Below, piece after piece: positions 6,024 to 62,259 of a stretch of 64,000 nt of DNA. The notes under the pieces are model-generated. The model did not search any database, was not told the DNA's origin, and saw nothing but the letters and a program-made list of their open reading frames with translations. The stretch is from the sequence record PV467749.1; one strand, 5' to 3'. Every line of letters starts with the position of its first letter. Within the stretch, counting starts at the first letter, position 1. The stretch comes from a phage. Position numbers and translations under genes: made by a program.

Positions 6024-6356
6024 TTACATTTTGATACCTGGATTCAGGTAGCGGTGAGATCCATACTCTGGATCGGTTTCGGTCCAGTACTGTAAATCGA
6101 TAGTACCTTTCGCGTTAATCTTGTCTACCAGCTTATTCATCTTAGCGTATACTACATCAGCATCGATGCGTTTAAAGCCAGTGGCTTTAGTGAAGTAGTA
6201 GTGATTTGCTTCACTATCATTCAGGATGTACCGAGAACCGTTTGCCGTTTGTGCGATAATGATTGAGTATTCTACGTTACGGTCGAGGCCGTCGATGAAT
6301 ACAGAGGAAACATTAGTACGGATGAATGCTTTAACGATAGCGATTGAAGTAGTCAT
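6024..6356 (-). CDS. hypothetical protein
   Basis: 110-aa ORF, SD GGAGAT, own promoter. Confidence 0.75.
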   Translation of the reverse strand: MTTSIAIVKAFIRTNVSSVFIDGLDRNVEYSIIIAQTANGSRYILNDSEANHYYFTKATGFKRIDADVVYAKMNKLVDKINAKGTIDLQYWTETDPEYGSHRYLNPGIKM

Positions 6357-16953: not shown

Positions 16954-16981
16954 ATTATACGCGTTTAAAAACTAATTACAA
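16954..16981 (-). promoter_or_regulatory. promoter + 5' stem-loop cassette (PeSL-like)
   Basis: TTGTAA-N16-TATAAT + GGGGAGAAATGATTCTCCCC; duplicate of the cassette at 16725. Confidence 0.65.
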
Positions 16982-17181
16982 GTACTATTTGAAAGTAAAT
17001 GCTCATACGCTGCATTAACTACGTTTTCAATAACCGACTGTACAGAAAGATCCCCCACGTCCTGGCTATAGTAGAAATTGCTTACAGTGGTGTCATCGTA
17101 TGCAAATACTTTACCAGGTACGGCATCAATCACATACATATTAACCTTTAAGATGTCGATCTTATCCTGTACAGTAAGCAT
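16972..17181 (-). CDS. hypothetical protein
   Basis: 69-aa ORF following 17187..17459. Confidence 0.65.
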   Translation of the reverse strand: MLTVQDKIDILKVNMYVIDAVPGKVFAYDDTTVSNFYYSQDVGDLSVQSVIENVVNAAYEHLLSNSTCN

Positions 17182-17186
17182 ATTAA

Positions 17187-17459
17187 TTACCCTTTTAAGT
17201 ACTGGATTAAGTAGTCTTGTTGATCTTCGGTGATTGCCGCCATCTTCCCTAGTACTGGATTAATGATATAATCCCCGGTAACGTCCTGTAACGCATTCTC
17301 AGGCGGTGAAACGGCTGGGGTAGCCATAGCCATCGCCTGGACTTGTTCGACGCTGTATCGCTCATATAGGCGGCATTCTTCCGGTGTTAACATAGCATCA
17401 GTACGCTTCATCGGTTTAATGATGCTTTCGATCTCATTCAGTACTTGATTAACGTTCAT
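17187..17459 (-). CDS. hypothetical protein
   Basis: 90-aa ORF. Confidence 0.7.
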   Translation of the reverse strand: MNVNQVLNEIESIIKPMKRTDAMLTPEECRLYERYSVEQVQAMAMATPAVSPPENALQDVTGDYIINPVLGKMAAITEDQQDYLIQYLKG

Positions 17460-17510
17460 GGTATAATCCCCAATATAAGCGGCCTGAATCGACCGCTAAC
17501 GATGTTTTGA

Positions 17511-17780
17511 TTAATAGGTGTATGGTTGACGCTCAAACAATGATTGCACGTTGTACGCCCCGCTTATGGGCTTCGCTGGTAAATCAATTTTATATTGTTC
17601 ACGCTTAAAGATAATAAAACGGCAATTGTTTTTAACATCAAAATTGATTGAACGTTCCAGGAGTTTTCCATCGTGCACAAATACAAGATAACCGCTTGCT
17701 ACTTGTTTTGTAGTACTGGTTGCAACCATAGACCGCCGAACATGTGTACCTGCGTCGATTAAAGTACTGATATTTTTCAT
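17511..17780 (-). CDS. hypothetical protein
   Basis: 89-aa ORF, SD AAGAGGA. Confidence 0.7.
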   Translation of the reverse strand: MKNISTLIDAGTHVRRSMVATSTTKQVASGYLVFVHDGKLLERSINFDVKNNCRFIIFKREQYKIDLPAKPISGAYNVQSLFERQPYTY

Positions 17781-17860
17781 TATACGATCCTCTTAAGTTA
17801 ATTTAATTTCTTTCCCCTATGCAGACACTATATCAAAGTATCTGCATAAAGTAAAGCTAA

Positions 17861-18184
17861 TTAAAGATCTTTTTTGCGTTTAACATTCTGTACAGTACAA
17901 TGCAACGGGATATTAAGATCATTGCACAAACGAGTAAGGGAGGTTTCATCAGTATTAAGCCCGTCTACTGATTCCTTTAAGAGAGATAACGCCGTTTGTT
18001 GATATGCATCTTCATAGCCATAAGTAAATGATTCAACCGCCAGATCATTCAAACCGTTATCCAGTTCAACGCTTACATGACAAGAATGATAAGTATTGCC
18101 ATATGAATCAGTCCAACGTTTACCGTCAACATTGATTGCACGGATTGCAGCCAGGGAAACGGTGTTAATGATAGTTTTAGCCAT
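17861..18184 (-). CDS. hypothetical protein, paralog of 11350..11673
   Basis: Shared RWTDSYGNTYHSCHVS..FTYGY..VKRKKDL. Confidence 0.8.
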   Translation of the reverse strand: MAKTIINTVSLAAIRAINVDGKRWTDSYGNTYHSCHVSVELDNGLNDLAVESFTYGYEDAYQQTALSLLKESVDGLNTDETSLTRLCNDLNIPLHCTVQNVKRKKDL

Positions 18185-18225
18185 TTTTGTATTCCTTAAA
18201 TTAATATGTTGTCTTGATAAAATCT

Positions 18226-18254
18226 ATTATGCCAGTACTATCAAACTATGTCAA
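18226..18254 (-). promoter_or_regulatory. sigma70-type promoter
   Basis: TTGACA-N17-CATAAT. Confidence 0.65.
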
Positions 18255-18273
18255 TAGTACTGTGATAATATTT

Positions 18274-18417
18274 TTACTTACTTTTTGCTTTCTTTGCTGC
18301 TTCCACCTGGTCGGCCCATTCTTTACCCCATACTTGTAAATTATAATGGTACTGGCAAAGAGCAACGCCCCGCTTTAAACCAGTAATAGATTTCTGACCA
18401 CATTGACAAGTTTTCAT
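18274..18417 (-). CDS. hypothetical small Cys-containing protein (47 aa, below cutoff)
   Basis: My translation: MKTCQCGQKSITGLKRGVALCQYHYNLQVWGKEWADQVEAAKKAKSK; own cassette. Confidence 0.5.
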   Translation of the reverse strand: MKTCQCGQKSITGLKRGVALCQYHYNLQVWGKEWADQVEAAKKAKSK

Positions 18418-18466
18418 TTTAGTTTCCTTGTAGTGGGGAGAACCATTTCTCCCCTTGATGTAATGT

Positions 18467-18494
18467 ATTATACTTTATTCGATTTACTTTGCAA
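18467..18494 (-). promoter_or_regulatory. promoter + 5' stem-loop cassette (PeSL-like)
   Basis: TTGCAA-N16-TATAAT + GGGGAGAAATGGTTCTCCCC hairpin. Confidence 0.7.
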
Positions 18495-18502
18495 GTACTT
18501 TT

Positions 18503-18730
18503 TTAATTTAATTCATCAAGGCAAAGGATACGCTCAACGCCCAAATCAGTTAAACTAATCGACGGCACTTGATAGGTTTCAATGTATGCTACACTTGCCC
18601 ACTGACCGAACTCATTAACGGCCCAGGTATTCATTGCATTTTGCAATTCCGCACCTTCCTTGTTGGTAATGACTGCAACTACTTGTTCGTTGCCAGTAGT
18701 ACCAGATACGCGAGTAATGATAATAGCCAT
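18503..18730 (-). CDS. hypothetical protein
   Basis: Start moved to MAIIITRV (75 aa); upstream track residues are cassette read-through. Confidence 0.65.
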   Translation of the reverse strand: MAIIITRVSGTTGNEQVVAVITNKEGAELQNAMNTWAVNEFGQWASVAYIETYQVPSISLTDLGVERILCLDELN

Positions 18731-18785
18731 TGTTTTGATTCCTTTGATTTTGAAGGAGAACCGTTTCCCCCTCTCGATGTAAAAC

Positions 18786-18813
18786 ATTATACGCTAATCT
18801 CTTAATCGTGCAA
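18786..18813 (-). promoter_or_regulatory. promoter + 5' stem-loop cassette (PeSL-like)
   Basis: TTGCAC-N16-TATAAT + GGGGGAAACGGTTCTCC hairpin. Confidence 0.65.
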
Positions 18814-18965
18814 GTACTTTTTATTACTTTTTGCAAAATACTTTAAACGCTCTCAATCGCGTTCTTACAGCCTTAACGCCACCAGCTAGGGCAATGCATC
18901 AGATAATCAGTTTAATGCGTTAGAATCGTTTCTAGGCGGTGCTGGTGGCCTGGTAAACGATAAAC

Positions 18966-18994
18966 ACAAAAAAGCCCACCGTTTAAGGTGGGCT
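18966..18994 (-). terminator. rho-independent terminator
   Basis: GCCCACCttaaacGGTGGGC + TTTTTT on the minus strand, after 19016..19498. Confidence 0.75.
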
Positions 18995-19015
18995 AGTGAT
19001 TCAGTACTTTAATTG

Positions 19016-19498
19016 TTATGCTTCAACTTTGCGATGAGCTTCGATCCATTCCTCGCGAGTCATACCACTGGAGTTAATCGCGTCCAGTACTACCGCAATA
19101 CAGTTACCACGCACCGGAATCAGATATTCTTCCCCGTTGTCCAGTACTACCGCTACGCGTTCCTGAATCCATTTTTTGGCTTTTACTTCTGGCTTGTCTT
19201 CCCCATACTTAACCGCCAGGGCTTTTTGTGCCATCTCTGTAACTACTTCCAGATCCAATCCAACTACTGCCGCCTGAATACTTTCGATTGTTGCTTGTAG
19301 TTCTGCTTCACGGGCCGCCTTTGCCGCTTCAATTTCTGCCGCTTTATTTGCTTGTAGTTCTTTCGCAGTACTGTACGCGATGTTAAAATTATTGCGTACC
19401 GCTTTCATGGTATCGTTATCCAGTTCAGCCAGGATCTCAGCCGCTACGTTAGTTTCATTTGCTACCAGTGCTTTGATGAATGATTTTACATTAGCCAT
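19016..19498 (-). CDS. hypothetical protein (Ala/Glu-rich helical N-terminal half)
   Basis: Start set at MANVKSF (SD GAGGAT); 160 aa. Confidence 0.8.
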   Translation of the reverse strand: MANVKSFIKALVANETNVAAEILAELDNDTMKAVRNNFNIAYSTAKELQANKAAEIEAAKAAREAELQATIESIQAAVVGLDLEVVTEMAQKALAVKYGEDKPEVKAKKWIQERVAVVLDNGEEYLIPVRGNCIAVVLDAINSSGMTREEWIEAHRKVEA

Positions 19499-19621
19499 TT
19501 TATAAATCCTCAATTAAAGTTTAGTTTACGTTTATTAGTGTATCAAAGTTTTCTCGACGTGTCCAGTTTTTCGTTCGACTTACTGGCGGTCTACTTAGTG
19601 CTCCCCGTCTTGATGTAATAC

Positions 19622-19649
19622 ATTCTACGCTTTTCTGCGGTAATGTCAA
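19622..19649 (-). promoter_or_regulatory. sigma70-type promoter with diverged copy of the structured leader
   Basis: TTGACA-N16-TAGAAT. The leader at about 19540-19620 resembles the spacer of the 12321/22107 repeats. Confidence 0.55.
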
Positions 19650-19700
19650 CTACTTTCTTAAAACTATTTTCAAAGTATCTCAGTACTACGATACTACAAA

Positions 19701-19725
19701 AACAAAAAAGCCCACCAGGTGGGCT
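19701..19725 (-). terminator. rho-independent terminator
   Basis: GCCCACctgGTGGGC + TTTTTTGTTTTT on the minus strand, after 19732..19962. Confidence 0.65.
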
Positions 19726-19731
19726 ATGTAC

Positions 19732-19962
19732 TTAATCAGTGAGTAAAATATTAAACACTTTACCATTTAACGTTATTGGTGCACTGCTACCAGGCTCAAG
19801 ATCCGTTAATATACCTGCAATCGCTTTATCATTGGCGACCTTTCCAGTGTCCAACAGTACTACAGTACTGATAAGATTAACGCTCGTTTCAATATCATAA
19901 TGCACGGCGTTAAGTAGTTGTGTAGTACTGCTTTCGTTAAGTAAAACAATTCGCTTAGTCAT
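19732..19962 (-). CDS. hypothetical protein
   Basis: 76-aa ORF. Confidence 0.7.
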   Translation of the reverse strand: MTKRIVLLNESSTTQLLNAVHYDIETSVNLISTVVLLDTGKVANDKAIAGILTDLEPGSSAPITLNGKVFNILLTD

Positions 19963-19983
19963 GATGTTACCCCGTAGTATCTA

Positions 19984-20283
19984 TCAACGGCAATTAATAA
20001 CGCCGGTATGCGTTACTTTCTCAGTATCCATTACAGTGACCGAACCGCGTTTAGTACTGGCATCATAATAAATTGTTGTGCTACCGTTTTCGTCTTCTTC
20101 ATGGAACGGGCCGTTTTTAAATGCTTCCGGCTGGATCTCTAAATCCTTTAATACAATCTCGCCAGTACTTTCATCGGTCATTGCAACAGTGCACTGAATG
20201 AATTTTTCACTACTTACATCTAATGACGCATTAACAGCGAAAGAGGAAACAGATAAAGCCAGGGCGATGATTGTAATTTTCAT
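19984..20283 (-). CDS. small secreted protein (signal peptide, two-Cys family)
   Basis: Start moved to MKITIIALALSVSSFAVNA|S; Cys near the mature N-terminus (FIQC) and 1 residue from the C-terminus (VINCR). Confidence 0.75.
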   Translation of the reverse strand: MKITIIALALSVSSFAVNASLDVSSEKFIQCTVAMTDESTGEIVLKDLEIQPEAFKNGPFHEEDENGSTTIYYDASTKRGSVTVMDTEKVTHTGVINCR

Positions 20284-20328
20284 TTGATTATCCTTAGTTA
20301 CCAGGGGAACCGCTCCCCTATGCAAAAC

Positions 20329-20356
20329 ATTATACGCGTTTAAAAACTAATTGCAA
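20329..20356 (-). promoter_or_regulatory. promoter + 5' stem-loop cassette (PeSL-like)
   Basis: TTGCAA-N16-TATAAT + GGGGAGCGGTTCCCC hairpin. Confidence 0.7.
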
Positions 20357-20389
20357 GTATTTTAATAAAAAGTATTTGAAAAATAATTG

Positions 20390-20418
20390 TTGACAACTGC
20401 ATCCAGTACTGGCATAAT
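20390..20418 (+). promoter_or_regulatory. plus-strand sigma70-type promoter with no ORF downstream
   Basis: TTGACA-N17-CATAAT; CCCACCGGGTGC box at 20447-20458. Confidence 0.6.
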
Positions 20419-20424
20419 TACTAC

Positions 20425-20519
20425 ATCAAGACGAAACAGTCACTAACCCACCGGGTGCCGAGATCCGTCTATTAAATGATTCAGTACTGAAAAAGTAACG
20501 GGGAGTTATTATCTCCCCG
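20425..20519 (+). ncRNA. candidate ~95-nt small RNA
   Basis: Runs from the promoter at 20390-20418 to the GGGGAGttattatCTCCCC hairpin (20500-20518). No ORF or SD; contains the conserved box. Confidence 0.3.
20488..20519 (-). terminator. terminator hairpin (possibly bidirectional)
   Basis: GGGGAGataataaCTCCCC, followed on the minus strand by gttaCTTTTT; lies after the stop of 20525..20746. Confidence 0.6.
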
Positions 20520-20524
20520 CGTTG

Positions 20525-20746
20525 TTATTTTGTAAGGTATAAACAGAAGTCGCCTTTATTTGCTACGCCGCCAGTGTAACGCGATGAATAGTTAGAAACG
20601 TCCTGGACTTCTGCTATTACCAGGGTATCATCATTCAATTCGTCGCAGAAGCAAACGGCTGGATCTTGTACGCCGATTTTGTCGGCATGTTCCCGCATAG
20701 ATTTAACCAGTGCTTCCAGTTGGGAAAGAGTAGTGATATTAGCCAT
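20525..20746 (-). CDS. hypothetical protein
   Basis: Start moved to MANITTLSQ (73 aa). Confidence 0.7.
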   Translation of the reverse strand: MANITTLSQLEALVKSMREHADKIGVQDPAVCFCDELNDDTLVIAEVQDVSNYSSRYTGGVANKGDFCLYLTK

Positions 20747-20796
20747 TTTATTTTCCTCATTACCAGGGAGAACCATTTCTCCCTTTGATGTAAACC

Positions 20797-20824
20797 ATTA
20801 TACAGTACTGAAAACTAATTGCAA
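20797..20824 (-). promoter_or_regulatory. promoter + 5' stem-loop cassette (PeSL-like)
   Basis: TTGCAA-N16-TATAAT + GGGAGAAATGGTTCTCCC hairpin. Confidence 0.7.
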
Positions 20825-20832
20825 GTACTTTT

Positions 20833-21093
20833 TCAATATTGTTTGTCGTCGTCTTCCTCGATGAATTGACCGACGAAATGATCTACTTTCGCTTTGAGGC
20901 TTTTATAATCTTCTTCTACTTCCTTTAAACGTTCCTGGTAGTATTCCAATGCTTCAAGATACGCCGCCTCAGCAGTTTTTGCACGCATGGCTAAATTCAT
21001 GCCACGCGTTTCATCAAATAGCCAATAACCATCGGTGCACTGGCTAATAGATAATGTCTTGCTTAGTGCTGTATAGCTAATTACTTTACTCAT
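20833..21093 (-). CDS. hypothetical protein (coiled-coil C-terminus)
   Basis: 86-aa ORF. Confidence 0.7.
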   Translation of the reverse strand: MSKVISYTALSKTLSISQCTDGYWLFDETRGMNLAMRAKTAEAAYLEALEYYQERLKEVEEDYKSLKAKVDHFVGQFIEEDDDKQY

Positions 21094-21131
21094 TAGATAA
21101 CCCTCAGTAAAGGCGGGAACTATTACCCGCC

Positions 21132-21161
21132 ATTATCTCAGTACTGAATATTACATTCCAA
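21132..21161 (-). promoter_or_regulatory. probable promoter + stem-loop
   Basis: TTGGAA-N18-GATAAT + GGCGGGtaatagttCCCGCC; overlaps the 3' end of 21151..21390. Confidence 0.45.
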
Positions 21162-21390
21162 CCATTGCAGCACGGATCGCAGTAGTGCTATATTTGAATC
21201 CGTCCGGCGTTGTAGTAGTACCGTTGGCTTTTAATCTGCGGTACATACATTCCGCAGCAATATCTTTAGTTCTACTTTGTGCGATGCAACTTTGTGCAAG
21301 CCGATACAATGACTCACCGTTATTAATCCAAAGGCTTACATTCCAATGAGTTTTGTTTTTGTGTCCGTTGTAAGTTTTAGTACTAGCCAT
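21151..21390 (-). CDS. hypothetical protein, paralog of 23196..23435
   Basis: Start moved to MASTKTYNGHK. Shared GHKNKTHWNVSLWINN.ESLYRLAQ and TPDGFKYSTTAIRAAMVGM. Confidence 0.8.
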   Translation of the reverse strand: MASTKTYNGHKNKTHWNVSLWINNGESLYRLAQSCIAQSRTKDIAAECMYRRLKANGTTTTPDGFKYSTTAIRAAMVGM

Positions 21391-21440
21391 TTTTAAATCC
21401 TCGTTTGAGCGGGGAACCACTCCCCGCCTTGATGTAAAGT

Positions 21441-21468
21441 ATTATACGCTTTTAAACTTAGTTTACAA
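21441..21468 (-). promoter_or_regulatory. promoter + 5' stem-loop cassette (PeSL-like)
   Basis: TTGTAA-N16-TATAAT + GGCGGGGAGTGGTTCCCCGC hairpin. Confidence 0.65.
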
Positions 21469-21480
21469 GTACTTTTTAAA

Positions 21481-22092
21481 TTAATATTCGATTGATTCCA
21501 CTACGCCATCAATAACATTGAATTGATATTCGTTACCCTCAATCAGTGCAGTAATGTTTTCAGTAGTGAATTGATCCTCATATGCATTCTCTAAATCACG
21601 GTACAACTTACGAGATAATTCACGGATCGCATCAGTCAGTAAGTTTTCCAGGTCATCAGCAAGTGCCGCTTGTTTTACAGTTAAATCAGTGTAGCGAGTA
21701 TCAACGCAACCGCTTACCGTGTTTTCGTGTGCGTAGCGAGAGTGTGAACGTTCTACACTCATTGCCAAATCATCTTCATTCAACAAGTGACGGATTGAAC
21801 GATATTTCGTTAACGCCTTAACCTTGCGTAAAAACTTCTCAGCGTCAACGTGGTTAGTACTGATTGATGCACCGTCACCTTGCGACCAAAAACCACTGTA
21901 TTGCAATTCAGCTTCATCTATGCCGTATTCTGGTAGTACTGTTTCTTTATAGTACTCGATAACGCCCTCAGCAAAGAAATTATCCTCACATGAACGCTCA
22001 CGATCCCGAACCAGTTCGATAGCCGCCGTTTTTTGTTCTGCGTTCAGTTCAGAAAAAGCCATAACAAAAGTAGTAGTAGTGATAGTTTTCAT
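21481..22092 (-). CDS. conserved hypothetical protein (YSGFWSQGDGAS motif)
   Basis: 203-aa acidic ORF. The motif is reminiscent of plasmid/phage-borne families, but I cannot assign one. Confidence 0.8.
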   Translation of the reverse strand: MKTITTTTFVMAFSELNAEQKTAAIELVRDRERSCEDNFFAEGVIEYYKETVLPEYGIDEAELQYSGFWSQGDGASISTNHVDAEKFLRKVKALTKYRSIRHLLNEDDLAMSVERSHSRYAHENTVSGCVDTRYTDLTVKQAALADDLENLLTDAIRELSRKLYRDLENAYEDQFTTENITALIEGNEYQFNVIDGVVESIEY

Positions 22093-22106
22093 TTTGTAAC
22101 CCTCAT

Positions 22107-22298
22107 TCAGTAGTTGATGTAAGTATTATACGCTTTTAAAAACATTTGTCAAACTATTTTATCAGGGGAGTTTTTCGTGTGCCTTACTCCTGGGCTACTT
22201 AACGGGAAGTTACTTATTTCGTTCCCCGTCCTGATGTAAAACATTATACGCTTATTGAGATAGTTTGCAAGTACTTTTTAAAAATAGTTTTCAGTACT
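22107..22298 (-). repeat. ~190-bp dual-promoter unit with structured ~75-nt spacer (copy B)
   Basis: Near-identical to 12321..12510. P1 22243-22270 (TTGCAA-N16-TATAAT), P2 22125-22152 (TTGACA-N16-TATAAT). Confidence 0.75.
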
Positions 22299-22316
22299 GA
22301 ATAGTAAAAAAAAGTA

Positions 22317-22345
22317 TTGACAGCATTATCAAGTACTGGCATAAT
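22317..22345 (+). promoter_or_regulatory. plus-strand promoter, convergent with 22461..22489
   Basis: TTGACA-N17-CATAAT; box CCCACCGGGTGC at 22367-22378; no ORF. Confidence 0.6.
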
Positions 22346-22460
22346 ATACCCCATGACAACAGCTAACCCACCGGGTGCACAATTGTAACTATACTAAACT
22401 AATTTTTCTATAGATACACTCCCGCACCCTATGGGCTACGGCTTATCTGCCAATGAATAC

Positions 22461-22489
22461 ATTATGCCAGTACTGACAAAATAAGTCAA
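22461..22489 (-). promoter_or_regulatory. minus-strand promoter, convergent with 22317..22345
   Basis: TTGACT-N17-CATAAT; box (minus sense CCCATAGGGTGC) at 22424-22435. Confidence 0.6.
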
Positions 22490-22522
22490 TACCGGCAATT
22501 GTAAATTTTTCAAAAAATATGA

Positions 22523-22753
22523 TTATACTGCAATCGCGTCCAGGCTGTAATAATAATAAGTGCCGTATTGGTGTACTTTATTACCTTTTATTTCAGTACT
22601 GAATGAATCCGAACGATTTGCATATGATGTTAATTTAAAGTACTTTGATTTGCTGATACGTTGCCATACACCACAGATCCGCTGTAAGTAAGTAGTTTTA
22701 TTCGTGGTCGTATCTTTTACGGTTTTAACTTCAGTCATATACATATTAGTCAT
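22523..22753 (-). CDS. hypothetical protein
   Basis: 76-aa ORF, SD GGAG. Confidence 0.7.
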   Translation of the reverse strand: MTNMYMTEVKTVKDTTTNKTTYLQRICGVWQRISKSKYFKLTSYANRSDSFSTEIKGNKVHQYGTYYYYSLDAIAV

Positions 22754-22805
22754 TTTTATTACTCCAGGTTATAGGCGGGAAGAGTTCCCGCTCTCGATGT
22801 AAAAC

Positions 22806-22833
22806 ATTATACGCCTTTAAACATAGTTTGCAA
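22806..22833 (-). promoter_or_regulatory. promoter + 5' stem-loop cassette (PeSL-like)
   Basis: TTGCAA-N16-TATAAT + GAGCGGGAACTCTTCCCGCC hairpin. Confidence 0.7.
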
Positions 22834-22840
22834 GTACTTT

Positions 22841-23107
22841 TTATTCAAGTACTGCAATCTTTTTAGTACGGTACACGGTCACGCGGTTGCCCTTTCGGTC
22901 GAGCTTTATTTCTACCACTCGACGCGATACACTATCGGGACTTTTTAAGGCCGCTAACCAGTACTGTAATGATCTGGCGGTACTACGCTTTACAATGGCC
23001 CAACGTTTACCACGTTCCGATTGTACGCCCATATCTTTAAACGTTGCCCCGTCCTGGCGTGCGGCGATCCGAGCTTGTTCACGCGTCGCAAAATACTTAA
23101 TATTCAT
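22841..23107 (-). CDS. hypothetical protein, paralog of 10859..11254
   Basis: Start moved to MNIKYFATREQAR; shared FKDMG, KRWA, DRKGNRVTVY. Confidence 0.75.
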   Translation of the reverse strand: MNIKYFATREQARIAARQDGATFKDMGVQSERGKRWAIVKRSTARSLQYWLAALKSPDSVSRRVVEIKLDRKGNRVTVYRTKKIAVLE

Positions 23108-23195
23108 GCTGTTGCCCTTATCGTTGGTGTATGAATAAAACACTATTATAAAGTACTATCCCCGTGCAATAGTACTTTAAATAAATTCTATTCTA

Positions 23196-23435
23196 TTACA
23201 TTCCAACCATTGCCGCACGGATCGCAGTAGTGCTATATTTGAATCCGTCCGGTGTTTTATCTTGTCCAGTCTGTTCTAAAAATAACATCATATGACGGGC
23301 CGCATCATTGCGATTAGTGCTATCGTTAATAAAGTCCTGGGCCAACCGGTATAATGATTCATCGTTATTAATCCAAAGGCTTACATTCCAATGAGTTTTG
23401 TTTTTGTGACCTAAGAACATTTTTGATTTAGCCAT
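23196..23435 (-). CDS. hypothetical protein, paralog of 21151..21390
   Basis: Start moved to MAKSKMFLGHK (SD AGAGGA). Confidence 0.8.
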   Translation of the reverse strand: MAKSKMFLGHKNKTHWNVSLWINNDESLYRLAQDFINDSTNRNDAARHMMLFLEQTGQDKTPDGFKYSTTAIRAAMVGM

Positions 23436-23486
23436 TTTTTTAATCCTCTTATATAGTGGGGAACTATTCCCCACCTGATGTAAAAC

Positions 23487-23514
23487 ATTATACGCTTTTA
23501 AACTTAGTTTGCAA
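23487..23514 (-). promoter_or_regulatory. promoter + 5' stem-loop cassette (PeSL-like)
   Basis: TTGCAA-N16-TATAAT + GGTGGGGAATAGTTCCCCAC hairpin. Confidence 0.7.
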
Positions 23515-23528
23515 GTACTTTATTAAAC

Positions 23529-23891
23529 TTATTTGTAAATTTTGCCACTTTCTACCCATACCAGGAAACGAGGCATATTATCCCATGCATCTTGCTTTAA
23601 GTTTAAGCCGTGCAATTCCTCAGTTGTTGCCATGCCTGGGACTGGTTTACTATACACCGAGAATTTTTCGCCCATGTACTGATAAACCATCGTCAAATCA
23701 CTGGCGATCATCTTATGGATCATCGCATCAAGCATCACGGTCGCGGCGTATTGTTCACGCTTAAGCGGCAGCATTTTAATCAGTTCGCGGTATGCGTCAA
23801 TGTGAGTTTTAACCGTTGCCGCCGGAAGATCTTTCATCTCGTCGCGGAAGTTAACCAGGTTAGCAATAATTTTGGTGATTTGAGTCGCCAT
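23529..23891 (-). CDS. hypothetical protein
   Basis: Start moved to MATQITKII (120 aa); 47 upstream track residues are cassette read-through. Confidence 0.7.
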   Translation of the reverse strand: MATQITKIIANLVNFRDEMKDLPAATVKTHIDAYRELIKMLPLKREQYAATVMLDAMIHKMIASDLTMVYQYMGEKFSVYSKPVPGMATTEELHGLNLKQDAWDNMPRFLVWVESGKIYK

Positions 23892-23948
23892 CGTTTTAAT
23901 CTCTCTTAAAAGTGAGTTAGGAGCGTTTCCCCCGTCTCGATGTAAAAC

Positions 23949-23976
23949 ATTATACGCCTTTAAACATAGTTTACAA
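23949..23976 (-). promoter_or_regulatory. promoter + 5' stem-loop cassette (PeSL-like)
   Basis: TTGTAA-N16-TATAAT + GACGGGGGAAACGCTCC hairpin; leftmost-pointing promoter at the edge of the ORF-free region. Confidence 0.65.
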
Positions 23977-24199
23977 GTACTTTCTACAAATACTTTTAAA
24001 ATAGTTTTCTTTCTATATAGGGAAACTATCATTCAGTACTGAATCAACCAAATCACTACTACACCCCGTAAAACGGCCTCAATCGCATTCTAACGCATTA
24101 TTACACCTAAGCTATACATTTGCACCATTCTAATCATTCCAGTGCGTTACGGGCCGTTTAAACGCGTTAAATTATTTTCAATTATTTTGTTTTTAGGTA

Positions 24200-24227
24200 T
24201 TGACTCAGTACTAAAAAAGCGTATAAT
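24200..24227 (+). promoter_or_regulatory. plus-strand promoter, no ORF
   Basis: TTGACT-N16-TATAAT; box CCCCAGGGGGTGC at 24255-24267; an opposite-sense box at 24313-24325. Confidence 0.6.
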
Positions 24228-24415
24228 TACTACATAGACGCGAGAAAGCGGATACCCCAGGGGGTGCGGAATTGTGCCCAAAATTCAAGATATAAAAAAA
24301 GGATACACTCCCGCACCCTAGCAGGTAAACGCACTTTCTCAGTACTGAAATATAGTACCATAGTCCGGCCCAGGATAGCAAGCAAATTAATTAAAACTTT
24401 TTTGCTTCCAGGGTA

Positions 24416-24443
24416 TTGCTTTATTTTTTCAGTACTGTATAAT
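24416..24443 (+). promoter_or_regulatory. plus-strand promoter, no ORF
   Basis: TTGCTT-N16-TATAAT (TG-extended); box CCCACCGGGTGC at 24472-24483. Confidence 0.55.
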
Positions 24444-24540
24444 AGTTCCATCAAGTCGAGAAAGACTCAAGCCCACCGGGTGCATAGTTACGCCCAAAAT
24501 TCAGTACTGAAAAAATTTTTAAAAATATCCGTCCAGGTCG

Positions 24541-24569
24541 TTGACATTGCCCCCAGTTTATAAGATAAT
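24541..24569 (+). promoter_or_regulatory. plus-strand promoter reading into the TAGCCRTC iterons
   Basis: TTGACA-N17-GATAAT; GCGGGGAaactaTCCCCaCGC hairpin about 40 nt downstream. Confidence 0.6.
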
Positions 24570-24666
24570 GATTCCAGATTCAGAAAAATCTAACACCAGA
24601 TACTGCGGGGAAACTATCCCCACGCGGTAGGGGAACTATTGGAAAAAACAAAATAAAATTTTGATT

Positions 24667-24778
24667 TAGCCGTCTATACTTCCAGACGTGTAACCATCTA
24701 GCCGTTTAGCCGTCCAAACGTCTAGCCATCCAGCCATCCAGAAATCTAGCCGTTTAGCCGTCTAGATGGATAGCCATC
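24667..24778 (+). repeat. iteron cluster, 8 copies of TAGCCGTY / YAGCCATC
   Basis: Copies at 24667, 24699, 24707, 24723, 24731, 24747, 24755, 24771. Flanked by a CTTCCAGAC pair and RCCCAAAATYC repeats. Confidence 0.8.
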
Positions 24779-25180
24779 TTTACTTCCAGACTTCTGGAGG
24801 GCTAGACATATCTACGCCCAAAATCCATCCAGGGTAACTACACCCAAAATCCGTCAGTACTATACCATAGATCTATCTTTTGAAAGGGAGTATTCAGTAC
24901 TGCCATCATAGCCCTCACTATGTTACCCTAGGAGGATGAAGACTATCATGTAGTACTGAATACTGTTAGAGGGAATCCACCAGCTTGTGCTGGTGGCATA
25001 ATGCTTTAGATTAAAATCAGTACTGACACCATTCTGTTAATATCAGTACTGTTATTACGATTTTCATATGAGGTTCAAAAAGATGTACCACCACAGGAGG
25101 AACTATCTTTTCTGTACTGTCTCACGACAGGAGGTAGAGTAAATGAATTGTTCGCAGCAACTCATCTCTCTATGTAGAAC

Positions 25181-25208
25181 ATTATACAGTACTGAATCAT
25201 AATGTCAA
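25181..25208 (-). promoter_or_regulatory. orphan PeSL-type promoter (no gene downstream)
   Basis: TTGACA-N16-TATAAT with a GTTCTACATAGAGAG leader like the early-gene cassettes, but followed only by ORF-free DNA. Confidence 0.55.
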
Positions 25209-25486
25209 TAGCTTTCTTTCATTATTCAGTACTGATATTCTTGAGAACTACCCGACTACAAACATCATTATATCCCACAAATCATAAACGTCCCAACGTA
25301 AATTTCAACTTTCGAAGAACCAACTTTTATTTCATAGGTACTCCAAAATTTTTAGGATCGAGATTTAGGATGGAGTACTAACCAACTTTTTGCTGGAGCC
25401 TCAAGGGGTAATTGAATTTTACCCCGAAGGGTAAAAGGGTAATTGAAATTAAGGTGAAAGTAATAATTCAGTACTAATCATTGCGT

Positions 25487-50825: not shown

Positions 50826-50831
50826 AATTAA

Positions 50832-50860
50832 TCCAGTACTATTATAGTACTGGATTTTTT
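50832..50860. terminator. bidirectional terminator between convergent arrays
   Basis: TCCAGTACTattatAGTACTGGA flanked by T-runs on both strands. Confidence 0.75.
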
Positions 50861-53368: not shown

Positions 53369-54142
53369 TTAAATTTTCTCAAGGAACATGTTTTCTGCCA
53401 TTGACTCCCAATCATATGGAAATTTATTATACAGACCAGCGATCAGTACTGGCATACGCAGAGAAGGTGAACGCAGCTTTTCTTCGTTGTTCAGCATCCA
53501 GTTTAAGATAGCTTTACAACCATTTTTATTAACCCCATTGTTCTCAAGAATATTAGTCTTGTTCATGATGTTCTCAATGTGAATCATAACTTCTTCGTTA
53601 GTGAACAGTTGAAGATCAACAAAGATACTACGAGTAATCAGTGCATCAATGTGTGGTGCTAAACTGCTTTTACCTTTAGCAATCTGTGACAGGTTTTTGT
53701 TCGTCAGGAAGATTACCTTCCCACGGAATTCAAACTGCTTAGGAATACCCTGCTGTTCCAGGTACTTCCCAGAAGTTGCATAAGATACAACCCGCTTCTC
53801 TGAAGTATCCAGTACTGCTTTGAGCAAGTCAATGTTGGTTTCATCGCTGAAGATATCAACGTCATCAAGTAACAGTACTGAAGCGGCATGACGTGAACGA
53901 TACAGTGCTTCGTACAAACCCATAGTGGTTACTTTACCGCTGATCTTTTTGTAGTCGATTTCAAAGTTATCATCAGCTTTCTGTAAACGCTGGTCAACGT
54001 TGTAAGTTTTACCAACACCACCTTTACCAGATACAATCAGGGAATTGATTGAATTAGCTTGGGTATCAAGTAAACATTCCAAAGCTGCCATCATGCTGTT
54101 GAAGTTCTTTTCGATTTGGATTGCTTTCTCTGTACGGGTCAT
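53369..54142 (-). CDS. P-loop NTPase (AAA-like ATPase)
   Basis: 257 aa; Walker A SGKGGVGKT, Walker B VLLLDDVD, sensor-like FLTN. Confidence 0.85.
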   Translation of the reverse strand: MTRTEKAIQIEKNFNSMMAALECLLDTQANSINSLIVSGKGGVGKTYNVDQRLQKADDNFEIDYKKISGKVTTMGLYEALYRSRHAASVLLLDDVDIFSDETNIDLLKAVLDTSEKRVVSYATSGKYLEQQGIPKQFEFRGKVIFLTNKNLSQIAKGKSSLAPHIDALITRSIFVDLQLFTNEEVMIHIENIMNKTNILENNGVNKNGCKAILNWMLNNEEKLRSPSLRMPVLIAGLYNKFPYDWESMAENMFLEKI

Positions 54143-54170
54143 GTATTCATCCTCTCGTCTTGATGAAATA

Positions 54171-54210
54171 ATTATAGCAAAAAGGGCTGACCGAAGTCAA
54201 CCCTTTTTTC
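54171..54210 (-). promoter_or_regulatory. terminator-promoter fusion cassette
   Basis: GGGTTGAC-TTCG-GTCAGCCC hairpin + T5, with TTGACT as the -35; N18; TATAAT. The HNH gene's TGA stop lies inside GGGTTGACT. Confidence 0.7.
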
Positions 54211-54610
54211 TTTCAATCAAACATAGTCTACCAGAATGTACCATGCGATGGTGATTAGAACAAAGAATCATACACTTTCGAATTTCATCTTTGATAGCAT
54301 CTCGACTTTTACTGAACATAGAACTTGGTGTATGTTCTTTGGTATTAGGGTCAAGATGGTGAAAGTCTAAACATTCTGGATACTTCATCATACAAACACT
54401 ACAACCATAAAATGATTTAACTCTGGTCATGAAATCTTTATTTTTTCTTTTGATTTCTTCAAGTTTTTTGACATCAGTTTTTTTATTTCTGGTTTTCTTA
54501 CTGGTAATATTACTACAACCTTTGCATGTATTTCTATGTTTCCCAGTATCACTTCTTATACCAAATTCACTAATGTCTTTTTCAATATTACACGTGATAC
54601 ACTTCTTCAT
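54197..54610 (-). CDS. HNH endonuclease (free-standing, homing-endonuclease-like)
   Basis: 137 aa; Cys pairs CITC, CKGC, CSVC; LDFHHLDP..K..; ILCSNHHRMVH. Confidence 0.85.
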   Translation of the reverse strand: MKKCITCNIEKDISEFGIRSDTGKHRNTCKGCSNITSKKTRNKKTDVKKLEEIKRKNKDFMTRVKSFYGCSVCMMKYPECLDFHHLDPNTKEHTPSSMFSKSRDAIKDEIRKCMILCSNHHRMVHSGRLCLIERKKG

Positions 54611-56299: not shown

Positions 56300-56355
56300 G
56301 ACAATTCCTCGATTGTGGGATGAGAAGTTCATCCCCTTGATAAACATTATACAGT

Positions 56356-56383
56356 ACTGAATGAGTTTGTCAACTCAAAATAA
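56356..56383 (-). promoter_or_regulatory. promoter + 5' stem-loop cassette (PeSL-like)
   Basis: TTGACA-N16-TATAAT + GGGATGAacttcTCATCCC hairpin; overlaps the 3' end of 56375..56755. Confidence 0.7.
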
Positions 56384-58352: not shown

Positions 58353-58766
58353 TTATGCTGGTACACAATTTTTTATAATGAATACACGTTTCATGAATGA
58401 ACTTTCATATACGTACTTCAGTTTACCATTTTCACGCATACGATGAAACACATCTTTACCGCTAGTACTCCATGTTGAACCAGTCTCTGCATCAACATTG
58501 TTCATTACACCAGATGTTACATTCACCCCGTACTTGAAGCTAAAGGTACTACCTTCTTCTACTAGAGGGATTGGTGTACTACGTTCATGTTCCAGTACAA
58601 GTTTACTGCCGATGATGTTGTACGAAGTTAGCTTGCATTTTAAAACACCCATCTCTTGTGCAGTTGGGTAATTCTTCTCAAATAAATCAGATACTTCATT
58701 TGCATAACAAACTGAACTAATCATAAGAAGTAATGAACTGATAGAACGGAAAATAACTTTTAACAT
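58353..58766 (-). CDS. secreted protein (signal peptide, two-Cys family)
   Basis: MLKVIFRSISSLLLMISSVCYA|NEV; Cys at VLKC and 3 residues from the C-terminus (IKNCVPA). Confidence 0.75.
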   Translation of the reverse strand: MLKVIFRSISSLLLMISSVCYANEVSDLFEKNYPTAQEMGVLKCKLTSYNIIGSKLVLEHERSTPIPLVEEGSTFSFKYGVNVTSGVMNNVDAETGSTWSTSGKDVFHRMRENGKLKYVYESSFMKRVFIIKNCVPA

Positions 58767-58792: not shown

Positions 58793-58832
58793 ATTATAGC
58801 AAAAAGGGCCGACCGAAGTCAACCCTTTTCTT
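58793..58832 (-). promoter_or_regulatory. terminator-promoter fusion cassette
   Basis: GGGTTGAC-TTCG-GTCGGCCC hairpin + T-run; TTGACT-N18-TATAAT. Confidence 0.7.
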
Positions 58833-59207
58833 TTATATTTTACATGTCATGTCTGGTTTTGGCTTTTCATTCTTTGGCTTTTCAAATGGATTTGGCTTAG
58901 GGGACTTTTTATCTTTGTCATCTTTAGCTTTCTTTTTGTTTTCTTTTTTATCCGATTTGTCAGCTTTGTCTTTCTTATCTTTTGAATCTTTGTCAGCTTT
59001 AGATTGTGGTTCCTCACATACAGCAGTTTTTGGCTCCGGCATATCACATGAGTTATCCACTGGTTTAATGAACTCTTTACAGTTGTAGAAGTATAAACTT
59101 TCATTGGTAGTAAGATTGTGGAATCTAAAGGTATTTTCACCATTAGTATATACTTTCTTAGTACTCTCAATATCATTACACATTGCAACTGTGTCACCGG
59201 AATTCAT
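58833..59207 (-). CDS. hypothetical protein with Lys/Asp-rich low-complexity tail
   Basis: 124 aa; C-terminal KADKDSKDKKDKADKSDKKENKKKAKDDKDKK; preferred over alternative frame 58847..59197. Confidence 0.6.
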   Translation of the reverse strand: MNSGDTVAMCNDIESTKKVYTNGENTFRFHNLTTNESLYFYNCKEFIKPVDNSCDMPEPKTAVCEEPQSKADKDSKDKKDKADKSDKKENKKKAKDDKDKKSPKPNPFEKPKNEKPKPDMTCKI

Positions 59208-59445: not shown

Positions 59446-59480
59446 TGCATTACCTCTTATAAAACCCTCTACAATATTTA

Positions 59481-59507
59481 CAAAAAAAGGTTGACCGAAG
59501 TCAACCT
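59481..59507 (-). terminator. rho-independent terminator (UUCG tetraloop)
   Basis: GGTTGAC-TTCG-GTCAACC + T7 on the minus strand, after the stop of 59517..61028. Confidence 0.8.
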
Positions 59508-59516
59508 TTTAAATGT

Positions 59517-61028
59517 TTATTTTTTATCCTTTCCAACACCACGGTCGTACTCTTTGAATGAGTTATCAAGTGTAGTTAGTGCATACTCATATGCTTCTGG
59601 TGATTCAATGTCAACATCATCTGCACCATTTACTAAATCAGCCCAAGCCTTTTGAAGTTTACGAGCATTGTTACCAACATTATCTTTAATCCAACTAATA
59701 TTTTTGTTGATACTTTTACTATCAGCACCTGCTTTTTTACCAATCTCGGATATCCACATCATTAACTTTTGAAGTTCATGAATTGATTTATCAGTCATTT
59801 CAAGATGTTCTTCTTCCATACCGTCAGAATCAGATGAACCAACGTCAATTCCATGTTTAGCTAATAGTTTACCAAGTTCAAAGAATGCAGCTTCAGCAGG
59901 GAAGTCATAACCTTTGTCTTTGTAGTTATTCCATGCACTATCAAACTCGTCAACAAAACGGTTAGCATAATCTGGATTTTTAACTAATGCTTTATATACT
60001 GCCATTGCATGTTCAAAACCTTCTTTATCTGACCCAAACTCTTCCATCTCAGGACGATGAATATATCCATCCATATCAACGGTATCAGGTAGATCTTCTT
60101 GTTCAGGTTCTACATCTTTCTGTTCAACTGCACCTTCTTCATCTGCACGCTTTAGATAACCATCTGGTGTTACCTTCTCACCATGTTCTGCTTCATACTT
60201 TTTCATAGTGTTGAATGCAGCATCCATAGCTGTTACGAAGCGACTTTTCTCACCTTGTACATAAGATTTAAGTGCACTGTTAACTGCATCTGATACGAGC
60301 TTAACCTTATCGTCTTTACCTTCTAAACGGTTTTCAAGTTTAGCCAGTACATTCTTGATTTGCTGGGCATTAGCACGGTCTGCTTTACCAATACTATCAA
60401 AAGTTTTAAGAATACCATCAAGACTTGCTTCACCCTGTTCAGGTTCTTTCGAATCTTCTTTGTGTGTACCTTCAAGTGCACGCATGATAGTACTGAATAC
60501 TTCAGTGGGTTCAGTACTCTTATTACCTTTCATTGCATCAAGTACAGCTTGTGCTTTACCTTTGAGTTCTTCTTTAGGAACTGCCTGTAGTGCTTTGACA
60601 ATACCCTGAATCAACTGTGGTTTGTTAGCAAAGATCTTACCTAAGTTATCAGATAACTCTTTAACAGGGTTAGCTGCTTTAGGAGCTTCTGGTTTTGGTT
60701 CTTCTTTAGGAACTGCTTGTTCTTTCTCAGCACGTTCCATATCAGCAAGGCGTTGTTTCTGTGTTGCGTTAAGAAGACCTAATGAGTTAACATAACGTAG
60801 CTTTTCTAGCTCAGTCATGTTCTCAGTACTCTTAACTTCACCTGCTTCTGCGTTTGCCTTACCAGCTAAACCTGTCCCTTGATTACGTGAACCACGTGAC
60901 CCCTGTCCTGCTTGGTAGCTATTTTGACGACGATTGCGTTCACTCCATTTATCAGAGTGACCTGCCATGTTCCCGCCATTTTTATCAGTAAATTGACCTG
61001 GCATTTGATTTCTCTCCATAGATTTCAT
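59517..61028 (-). CDS. large acidic hypothetical protein; N-terminal region paralogous to 61861..62259
   Basis: 503 aa. Shared DKWS/DKWN, Y(V/L)(N/D)SLGLL, PKEE(L/H).(G/A)K. Alternative start at MPGQF (61004) has the better SD, GGAGAG. Confidence 0.8.
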   Translation of the reverse strand: MKSMERNQMPGQFTDKNGGNMAGHSDKWSERNRRQNSYQAGQGSRGSRNQGTGLAGKANAEAGEVKSTENMTELEKLRYVNSLGLLNATQKQRLADMERAEKEQAVPKEEPKPEAPKAANPVKELSDNLGKIFANKPQLIQGIVKALQAVPKEELKGKAQAVLDAMKGNKSTEPTEVFSTIMRALEGTHKEDSKEPEQGEASLDGILKTFDSIGKADRANAQQIKNVLAKLENRLEGKDDKVKLVSDAVNSALKSYVQGEKSRFVTAMDAAFNTMKKYEAEHGEKVTPDGYLKRADEEGAVEQKDVEPEQEDLPDTVDMDGYIHRPEMEEFGSDKEGFEHAMAVYKALVKNPDYANRFVDEFDSAWNNYKDKGYDFPAEAAFFELGKLLAKHGIDVGSSDSDGMEEEHLEMTDKSIHELQKLMMWISEIGKKAGADSKSINKNISWIKDNVGNNARKLQKAWADLVNGADDVDIESPEAYEYALTTLDNSFKEYDRGVGKDKK

Positions 61029-61834: not shown

Positions 61835-61868
61835 ATTATACGACAAAGGGCTGACTGAAGTCAACCCC
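61835..61868 (-). promoter_or_regulatory. terminator-promoter fusion cassette
   Basis: GGGGTTGAC-TTCA-GTCAGCCC hairpin; TTGACT-N18-TATAAT. The TGA stop of 61861..62259 lies inside GGGGTTGACT. Confidence 0.7.
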
Positions 61869-62259
61869 TTTTAATTATTTTTTTAAACTTATGTTTTTCG
61901 CCTTCAATAGAGTTCACGATGTCATCATGAATCTTGCGAAGGTTATGAGTTTTCTTTAGTGCTTCATGTAGTGCACGGAATGCTGCGTGTACTGTTGCCT
62001 TGAAGTGCTCTTTAGGAGTCACTTTAAGTTTCTCAATGATATCACGTACATAAATTGGATGATCTTCAAATACACGATTCAATTCATGGCCTAGTGATTC
62101 TAGACTGAAAGCTTTTTCACGTGAAGGACGATCATGTGCAAGACTTTGGTCAGGCTTTAGTAGACCTAGTGAATCAAGATACTTATGCTTATGTGCATTA
62201 TCAATTCCAGAAATATCCACATCATGCGATGGATCTTTCTTATTCCATTTATCAACCAT
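61861..62259 (-). CDS. hypothetical protein, short paralog of the N-terminal region of 59517..61028
   Basis: 132 aa; see shared motifs above. Confidence 0.75.
   Translation of the reverse strand: MVDKWNKKDPSHDVDISGIDNAHKHKYLDSLGLLKPDQSLAHDRPSREKAFSLESLGHELNRVFEDHPIYVRDIIEKLKVTPKEHFKATVHAAFRALHEALKKTHNLRKIHDDIVNSIEGEKHKFKKIIKRG

Follow-up and report, generated by a model that had tools for sequence, protein, structure and literature searches.

PeSL-type cassettes with predicted terminator and promoter functions in the small-gene region of an Asteriusvirus jumbo coliphage

Promoter-early stem-loops (PeSLs) are small composite terminator/promoter sequences of the hyperplastic regions of T4-type phages (PMC2839356; PMC4122927). 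Each joins an AT-rich tract, which holds the stop codon of the upstream gene, to -35 and -10 boxes of sigma-70 type, a stem-loop, and an SD followed by ATG (PMC2839356; PMC4122927), with the stem-loop placed between the boxes, overlapping either the -35 or the -10, or lying to either side of them (PMC2839356). Experiments with the PeSLs of RB49 and phi1 have shown strong promoter activity and the formation of minicircles by PeSL-to-PeSL recombination (PMC2839356; PMC4122927); the strength of the promoters prevented their cloning without mutation, and the RB49 stem-loop terminates transcription in vivo as strongly as rrnB T1 (PMC2839356). PeSLs are associated with indels (PMC2839356; PMC4122927), and the stem-loop consensus in nt-1 and KVP40 is A3-4G3-loop-C3T3-4 (PMC4122927).

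We analysed a 64,000-nucleotide stretch of phage DNA (sequence record PV467749.1; 'the window'), which is 85–99% identical to the ~350-kb Asteriusvirus phages 121Q, PBECO4, SP27, G17, WPEC3 and EC.P1 and which, judged by sequence identity, belongs to an Asteriusvirus, that is, a 121Q/Rak2-like jumbo coliphage. A preliminary description of this DNA had presented a hairpin that encloses the -35 hexamer of the next promoter as a recurrent modular element not described before. This claim of novelty fell, as PeSLs were published in 2010 and 2014 and the same cassette is present in KVP40, a PeSL genome: the cassettes are a lineage-level addition, in Asteriusvirus, to the known PeSL kind and not a new type of element. 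PeSLs and the cassettes are alike intergenic and combine an AT-rich tract that carries the upstream stop codon with a promoter of sigma-70 type, a stem-loop free to overlap the -35 and, in only part of the Asteriusvirus copies, SD plus ATG; the two are also concentrated in plastic regions rich in ORFans, where they flank indels and replacements between close relatives; and the AAAAGGG...CCCTTTT of the Asteriusvirus copies matches the nt-1/KVP40 consensus. There are also differences. The hosts of PeSLs are T4-like Straboviridae (RB49/phi1, PST/T4, nt-1/KVP40), whereas the phage studied here is a jumbo phage; the Asteriusvirus copies share one nearly fixed hairpin with the whole -35 in its 5' arm, while the RB49 PeSLs fall into five positional subclasses with varied stems; four Asteriusvirus copies have a long leader and a second promoter where PeSLs have SD plus ATG; and promoter activity, terminator activity and minicircle formation, established experimentally only in RB49/phi1, would be predictions for the Asteriusvirus copies. 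Occurrence outside the T4-type phages is an extension of the host range of the PeSL family rather than a structural failure to belong to it. In the literature searched, the PeSL concept was not found applied to Rak2-like phages, and the descriptions of Asteriusvirus or RaK2 promoters and terminators did not mention an overlap of hairpin and -35.

Two further systems bear comparison. Like canonical intrinsic terminators, including bidirectional ones with an upstream A-tract, the cassettes have a G+C-rich 8-bp stem, a tetraloop, a downstream U-run and an upstream A-run that can extend the helix; unlike them, they have a U-run of just 3–4 nt in five copies, a stem that must hold TTGAC and a tail that must hold TGnTATAAT. 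The lambdoid morons (Hendrix et al. 2000, via PMC2839356) resemble the cassettes in that single genes or small groups of genes with their own promoter and terminator are gained and lost as units, but in morons the promoter and the terminator are separate, there is no conserved repeat, and they are not thought to mediate recombination (PMC2839356).

Searching the window with the 20-mer GGGTTGACTTCGGTCAGCCC, with up to three mismatches allowed, yielded nine matches, all on the minus strand (0.00 expected from shuffles), and we name the cassettes after the positions of these matches. A covariance model of 53 positions and 11 pairs, built from the nine window copies and six variant copies from relatives, returned exactly nine sites (47.6–74.8 bits) when run over the whole window with filters off; the next-best matches, at 30 bits or less, were palindromic mirror images of the nine. 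The nine sites of the preliminary description are thus the correct and complete set. All share a layout of ~45 bp that consists of an A-run, an 8-bp G+C-rich stem with TTGAC in its 5' arm, a tetraloop and a T-run:

54171..54214, minus strand: index cassette 54184, reading gaaagaaaaaaGGGTTGACTTCGGTCAGCCCtttttgcTATAAT from 54214 to 54171; -19.8 kcal/mol; 74.8 bits; 11/12 promoter match, spacer 18, TG present
54204-54214, minus strand: A-run of the index cassette
54203-54196, minus strand: its 5' arm, GGGTTGAC
54200-54195, minus strand: its -35, TTGACT
54195-54192, minus strand: its loop, TTCG, the first T of which doubles as the final base of the -35
54191-54184, minus strand: its 3' arm, GTCAGCCC
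54183-54179, minus strand: its T5 run
54179-54177, minus strand: TGC
54176-54171, minus strand: its -10, TATAAT
54142: ATG of the gene downstream of the index cassette
58793..58836, minus strand: cassette 58806, GGGTTGACTTCGGTCGGCCC, T5 and TGCTATAAT; -18.0 kcal/mol; 70.9 bits; SD and ATG of ORF 58353..58766 lie 26 nt downstream
59474..59518, minus strand: cassette 59488, perfect palindrome hairpin AGGTTGACTTCGGTCAACCT and T7, then GTAAATA; -15.6 kcal/mol; 53.6 bits
61057..61098, minus strand: cassette 61069, GGGTTGACTTCGGTCAACCT, TTTCTT and TATACT, spacer 17; -13.7 kcal/mol; 47.6 bits
61835..61877, minus strand: cassette 61848, GGGGTTGACTTCAGTCAGCCC, TTTGTCG and TATAAT, spacer 18; -16.0 kcal/mol; 64.8 bits
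6551..6596, minus strand: cassette 6563, TCCG-loop variant GGATTGACTCCGGTCAGTCC, CTTTGC and TATTAT, spacer 17; -19.5 kcal/mol; 64.6 bits
9308..9353, minus strand: cassette 9320, TCCG-loop variant with the architecture of 6551-6596; 66.0 bits
12573..12618, minus strand: cassette 12585, TCCG-loop variant with the architecture of 6551-6596; 64.1 bits
16260..16304, minus strand: cassette 16271, TGGTTGACTTCGGTCAGCCA with a compensatory T/A outer pair, TTTTGC and TATTAT; -15.9 kcal/mol; 67.6 bits

Among the copies at 54–62 kb, SD and ATG follow 26–28 nt past the -10 at 54184, 58806 and 61069, the last of which precedes the gene of a 503-aa virion structural protein (59517..61028). The four copies at 6–16 kb have instead a ~200-nt leader and a second promoter: after cassette 6563 come the conserved leader CCCACAGGGTGC... 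and, ~115 nt on, a second (type-B) promoter ahead of ORF 6024..6356, and the leader after cassette 16271 is the same as that after the TCCG-loop variants. A conserved leader motif, CCCAC(A/C)GGGTGC(A/G)..GTATC, lies 20–30 nt past the -10 of these four cassettes (6500-6540, 9250-9300, 12520-12560 and 16210-16250) and of three other sites (20414-20467, 24223-24276 and 24439-24492); it has no Rfam match, and may correspond to a short RNA made from the leader or to a regulatory site.

All nine cassettes lie between genes, spaced through the small-gene region of the window and oriented as the runs of small minus-strand genes around them. The neighbouring genes are mostly ORFans, members of PHROG families of unknown function without a Pfam match; only the HNH endonuclease encoded upstream of 54184 and two members of 'virion structural protein' families stand apart. 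In the complete TH47 genome (352 kb), TTGAC-containing hairpins – 14 of the cassette type and four of a second type – are found only at 90–147 kb, on one strand and co-oriented with the genes, and the window thus contains most of the cassette family. Rfam (at gathering thresholds) and ARAGORN gave no matches anywhere in the window.

The search of related genomes that the preliminary description had proposed found the cassette widely: with the 63-nt index cassette as query, blastn matched 175 phage records. Besides Asteriusvirus, these include the Rak2-like phages RaK2, GAP32, Munch, fHe-Yen9-04 and the Erwinia SNUABM phages, as well as KVP40-like Vibrio phages, the Aeromonas phages 65, CC2 and AS-zj, and the Certrevirus phages CR3, CR8 and CR9. 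In KVP40 the cassette (GAAAAGGGTTGACTGCGGTCAGCCCTTTCGCGTATTAT / GAAAAGGGTTGACTGCGGTCAGCCCTTTCGCGTATTATAGCTTCATCAAC; 51.5 bits) is located between genes 0037 and 0038, with the TGA of gene 0037 inside TTGAC; the covariance model scores the cassette of Aeromonas phage 65, AAAGGGTTGACTTCGGTCAGCCCTTTTTGCTACTAT, at 58.7 bits.

The hairpin is predicted in all nine window copies (-13.7 to -19.8 kcal/mol with the A:U extension counted in, z-scores -3.8 to -6.6), and its pairing is conserved. Across 15 distinct copies 98.2% of cells pair, as compared to only 19–61% in slid registers; four of the 11 pairs have changed on both sides (GGG/CCC, AGG/CCT, GGA/TCC, TGG/CCA), and none of 500 column shuffles reached the observed covariation score. 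For a wider sample we scanned IMG/VR with the 15-mer GGTTGACTTCGGTCA as seed; since about half of the matches were chance hits in G+C-rich coding DNA, only those with an A-run, a T-run and a -10 context were kept. In the resulting 75 distinct copies from other phages, 97.3% of cells pair. Opposite the first T of TTGAC stands a G in 72 of 82 copies; the pair is a U:G wobble in the sense RNA but would be a C:A mismatch in the antisense one. The loop is of the UNCG or GNRA type in 64 of 82, a figure in which TTCG is over-counted, as the seed used to fetch the loci itself contained TTCG. Together, the wobble and the predominance of these tetraloops point to selection on the RNA structure of the sense strand. 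Promoters impose little sequence constraint on their spacers, and the continued complementarity of the 3' arm, which falls in just such a spacer, fits a hairpin.

The promoter boxes are conserved alongside. At eight of the nine sites TTGACT is followed after 17–18 nt by a -10: TATAAT at 54184, 58806 and 61848, TATTAT at 6563, 9320, 12585 and 16271, and TATACT at 61069, with TG at -15/-14 usual in the TATAAT and TATTAT copies. The preliminary description does not hold at 59488, which lacks an acceptable sigma-70 -10 (the best hexamer is TAAATA/TGTAAA). In the IMG/VR loci TTGAC is invariant in 74 of the 75 distinct copies, and among the 82 copies the spacing is 17–18 in 79, TG is found at -15/-14 in 62, and the -10 is TATTAT, TATAAT or TATACT in 59. 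Since other stem positions covary while TTGAC does not change, the 5' arm is selected for its sequence over and above pairing, as fits a -35. An 18-bp spacer is suboptimal for sigma-70. Estrem and co-workers are said to have described, in 1999, a proximal UP-element subsite AAAAAARNR, and the A-run of the cassettes (~-39 to -45) sits at its location; in the paper on the related phage CBB, RpoD-like promoters are described as preceded by a UP-like element. At 59488 the T7 is followed by GTAAATATTG, and the GTAAATA after the hairpin resembles the late-type motif ATAAATA/GTAAATA tabulated in the CBB paper; 59488 is probably a terminator joined to a late-type promoter motif. A generic promoter scan was uninformative alone (67 promoter-like sites as compared to 68.9 in shuffles), and the three 11/12 hexamer matches that fall inside hairpins at 49–64 kb are exactly cassette sites.

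The G+C-rich stem and loop of an intrinsic terminator are present at all nine sites; the T-run varies. It has 5–7 T at 54184, 58806 and 59488 and 3–4 T at 6563, 9320, 12585, 61848 and 16271, and at 61069 the U-tract is interrupted (UUUCUUU); the five cassettes with 3–4 U after the stem may be weak attenuators at best. A generic terminator scan missed most cassettes, as it takes the A/T extension to be part of the stem. In relatives, terminators have been annotated at cassettes. In the GenBank record of G17, ARNold terminators of -13.5 to -17.0 kcal/mol coincide with eight of the cassettes within 15 kb, and the records of GAP32, Munch and P7_Pc have a 'terminator' under the cassette match. Table S8 of the CBB paper lists GGGTTGACTTCGGTCAGCCC three times (-16.8 kcal/mol), plus AGGTTGACTTCGGTCGGCCT; these hairpins are not among the 18 RpoD-like promoters of that paper, so their double nature as terminator and promoter went unremarked. 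The idea of a terminator-like hairpin holding the -35 of a near-consensus sigma-70 promoter in its 5' arm is borne out in silico at eight of nine sites, the exception being 59488, and is supported by covariation and by the ARNold calls in relatives. Cassette 59488 scores as a terminator on the plus strand too. The TH47 copy at 147270 has a T-run and lacks a -10; by its sequence it is a plain terminator. No transcript-end mapping for this phage or any Asteriusvirus was found in the literature searched.

The hairpin is also conserved where the U-tract is poor. In the unrelated uncultured phage L006 (IMGVR_UViG_3300025759_000061, 119 kb, G+C ~48%), hairpin and TTGAC precede four successive small genes at 10700-11720. 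These copies read TGA/A-run, GGGTTGAC(TCCG/TTCG/ATGA)GTC(A/G)GCCC, then TTCTGGCATTAT, with CATTAT as the -10, and the hairpins are followed by CCCUUCUGG / CCCUUCUGGCAUUAU, a poor U-tract (UUCUGG), which suggests that the conserved role of the hairpin may not be termination proper: copies with a short or poor U-tract may serve attenuation instead of full termination, or another RNA role. Megablast of the 119-kb contig found no relative, and PHROG matches of its proteins gave no taxonomic placement. The identical 23-mer hairpin has eight exact matches in bacterial genomes, in Vibrio, Bdellovibrio and Bacteroidetes MAGs, where with its T-run it stands at gene ends as an apparent terminator. We rejected homology for these matches, as coincidental identity is to be expected; bacterial terminators are very numerous and, by a rough estimate, the space of 8-bp stems with a UUCG loop is small.

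An A-run precedes every cassette, and the upstream stop codons lie in this run or, twice, in TTGAC. The ORF of the HNH endonuclease (54197..54610, ...LIERKKG*) ends in a TGA that lies inside its cassette's TTGAC, at 54199-54197, and ORF 61861..62259 (...KKIIKRG*) likewise ends in the TTGAC of cassette 61848, as had been noted before. Only the first of these overlaps is conserved: that of ORF 61861 is specific to this genome and results from a run of A7, where WPEC3, fEgEco12, 121Q and ph0011 have A6 and the equivalent gene stops at an upstream TAA. The HNH endonuclease gene, 54197-54610, is shared by the window with WPEC3, fEgEco12 and ph0011 and is missing from 121Q, G17 and SP27 (breakpoint 54622); it is inserted immediately upstream of cassette 54184, and its stop uses the TGA of the -35.

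A role of the cassettes in recombination was missed in the preliminary description. We located breakpoints by local blastn of the window against six relatives and the whole TH47 genome. Breakpoints lie on both sides of cassette 54184 (54205-54208 and 54135-54149), at the upstream edge of 61069 (61094/5) and at the downstream edge of 61848 (61824 and 61845). Cassette footprints make up 1.15% of the window and contain five of the 50 breakpoint clusters (binomial p = 2.8e-4); the five rank with the most recurrent clusters, although survival of breakpoints at gene boundaries is partly expected from selection alone. Where the window has a single cassette, two copies enclose 0.5–4.3 kb of additional genes in WPEC3, fEgEco12 and TH47, and at the window's single cassette 54184 the flanking copies of the relatives overlap by ~70 bp in the alignments. 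The insertion in WPEC3 is 2.6 kb long, with four genes, among them those of an endonuclease and of endonuclease V; that in fEgEco12 holds an endonuclease V gene; that in TH47 is 4.3 kb long. Further, 121Q, G17 and SP27 have half a cassette: GGGTTGACTTCGGT runs into unrelated DNA at a site where the cassette of fEgEco12 is complete. The junction in these three is just past the loop, and likewise in RB49 the minicircle crossover falls just past the loop (Arbiol et al. 2010; PMC2839356). Two other repeated promoter cassettes at 5–26 kb show the same breakpoint behaviour against TH47.

Several other features of the window are of note. A second regulatory cassette has at least 22 copies on the minus strand at 5900-25300 (e.g. 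16092-16207, 9140-9255 and 22197-22312), laid out as AAAAAGTACTTGCAAAC...(G)TATAATGTTTTACATCGA, a hairpin GGGGAAAC...GTTTCCCC in the 5' leader, and SD plus ATG; its copies flank indels relative to TH47 at 7874/9153, 11774/11937 and 16765/16923. In a third promoter class the hairpin CAGTACTAT-TGACATAG..-ATAGTACTG encloses the -35 TTGACA and the spacer, and the -10 comes directly after the stem, without a T-run; it occurs at 7162-7229, 14820-14887 and 18209-18276, and also at 11303-11338, 22465-22497 and 56346-56376, with two copies in TH47 as compared to one in the window at 14873. Tandem repeats are found at 24671-24822, an array of ~15 units such as CGTCTAGC/CATCCAGC with an 8-bp period, and at 24-4296, where a period of ~215 bp reflects a run of small paralogous minus-strand ORFs of ~80–85 aa (families D7, D12-D14 and D16).

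Separate from the cassettes, and more unusual, is the extreme over-representation of AGTACT and the palindromic octamer CAGTACTG in Rak2-like genomes. AGTACT is the most over-represented hexamer of the window (274 copies as compared to ~22 expected); it is densest at 5000-32000 and absent from 1-4000, and it appears in each of the three codon frames, with a 2.3-fold higher density in non-coding DNA. The complete TH47 genome (L127-L134) has 917 copies of AGTACT (119 expected) and 203 of CAGTACTG (3.6 expected). The motif is likewise enriched in the Rak2-like loci L004, L071 and L092 but absent from CR3 and from the contig of the uncultured phage L006. Only primer sequences were found when the literature was searched for CAGTACTG. 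At 50830-50856, a perfect 12-bp palindrome, AATCCAGTACTATTATAGTACTGGATT, lies between convergent genes, scores as a bidirectional terminator and has CAGTACT in its stem.

We consider it likely that the cassettes are PeSL-type elements which, in this Asteriusvirus jumbo coliphage, serve as terminator or attenuator, as sigma-70 promoter and as recombination substrate. In the sense RNA, the G+C-rich stem, the UNCG-type tetraloop and the U-run would end or attenuate transcription from the upstream small-gene operon, with the terminated 3' end falling at about the -10 of the next promoter. In DNA, the same bases would form a near-consensus promoter for host sigma-70, active early: the A-run at ~-39 to -45 would be a UP-like element, the TTGACT of the 5' arm the -35, the 3' arm and T-run the 17–18-bp spacer, and TGnTAT(A/T)AT an extended -10. 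From this promoter, transcription would start again into the next operon, which has an SD and ATG of its own. As ~45–75 bp directly repeated between gene cassettes, the elements would also be substrates for homologous recombination, which may insert, delete and swap the ORFan genes lying between them.

Could the elements have only one of these functions? The inverted repeat might belong to a promoter without any termination, either as promoter architecture or regulation (a cruciform, sensitivity to supercoiling) or as a 3'-end stabiliser or processing site of the upstream transcripts. The short U-tracts at five sites would fit this, as would L006, which keeps hairpin and TTGAC before each small gene despite its poor UUCUGG, and promoter types B and C of the window, which embed or adjoin hairpins without T-runs. 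Nevertheless, we think this improbable: 54184, 58806 and 59488 have 5–7 U right after a stem of -14 to -17 kcal/mol, ARNold calls terminators in the relatives, TH47 147270 has a T-run with no -10, and the RB49 PeSL stem-loop does terminate in vivo (PMC2839356). The converse, that TTGAC persists only as stem sequence passed on within a family of duplicated terminators, and that the TATAAT-like hexamers reflect an AT-rich background, would accord with the apparent terminators that the 23-mer hairpin and T-run form in unrelated bacteria, with the retention of TTGAC without a sigma-70 -10 at TH47 147270 and window 59488, and with the promoter scan finding no excess over shuffles. It is very hard to reconcile with an invariant TTGAC among covarying stem positions, a -10 at a fixed 17–18 nt with TG at -15/-14 in most copies and SD plus ATG 26–28 nt later, or with the coincidence of the 11/12 hexamer matches in hairpins at 49–64 kb with the cassettes, and PeSL promoters are too strong for unmutated cloning (PMC2839356); we give this possibility little credence. 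That pairing and promoter boxes are conserved together weakens both of these readings.

A different role for the palindrome is that of an operator, in which TTGAC-N4-GTCA(A/G) binds a dimeric regulator – an FNR/CRP-family protein with the site TTGA-N6-TCAA, or a phage early-gene repressor – that shuts the promoter off. We considered an FNR box since the only match of a full-text literature search for the cassette motif was a table of FnrL sites, in which TTGACttcgGTCAA is listed verbatim as a Rhodobacter site; the palindrome does overlap the -35, so that a protein bound to it would act as a repressor. The half-sites argue against an FNR/CRP-family box: the 3' one is TCAG and not TCAA in 72 of 82 copies, an asymmetry that RNA pairing (U:G) tolerates and that is not expected of a symmetric operator. 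Covariation of the outer GGG/CCC and of the A/T extension as base pairs, and the enrichment of N4 for stable RNA tetraloops, likewise make an operator of any kind highly unlikely as compared with the PeSL-type reading.

A broader proposal, which we put forward tentatively and regard as doubtful, is that the PeSL-type cassettes belong to a single pan-phage mobile module of ~45–75 bp, consisting of an A-run, GGGTTGAC-tetraloop-GTCAGCCC, a T-run, TGnTATWAT and CATCNAAC. This family would be shared, by descent or horizontal transfer, among uncultured phages and three unrelated groups of large myoviruses: Asteriusvirus with other Rak2-like phages, Straboviridae (for example KVP40 and Aeromonas phage 65) and Certrevirus (for example CR3). 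The U:G wobble would be selected for unidirectionality, avoiding both an antisense -35 and an antisense terminator.

The PeSL-type cassettes are hereby extended from T4-type phages to the 350-kb Asteriusvirus jumbo phages, and a concrete consensus and a covariance model are available for annotating them. Because existing records list cassette sites only as terminators, the early promoters and operon boundaries predicted here are missed. As a compact insulated promoter/terminator part the cassette may have some appeal for synthetic biology, though no concept is changed by it. For the phages themselves, recombination between cassettes would explain much of the gene-content mosaicism among the 121Q-like phages used in therapy work.
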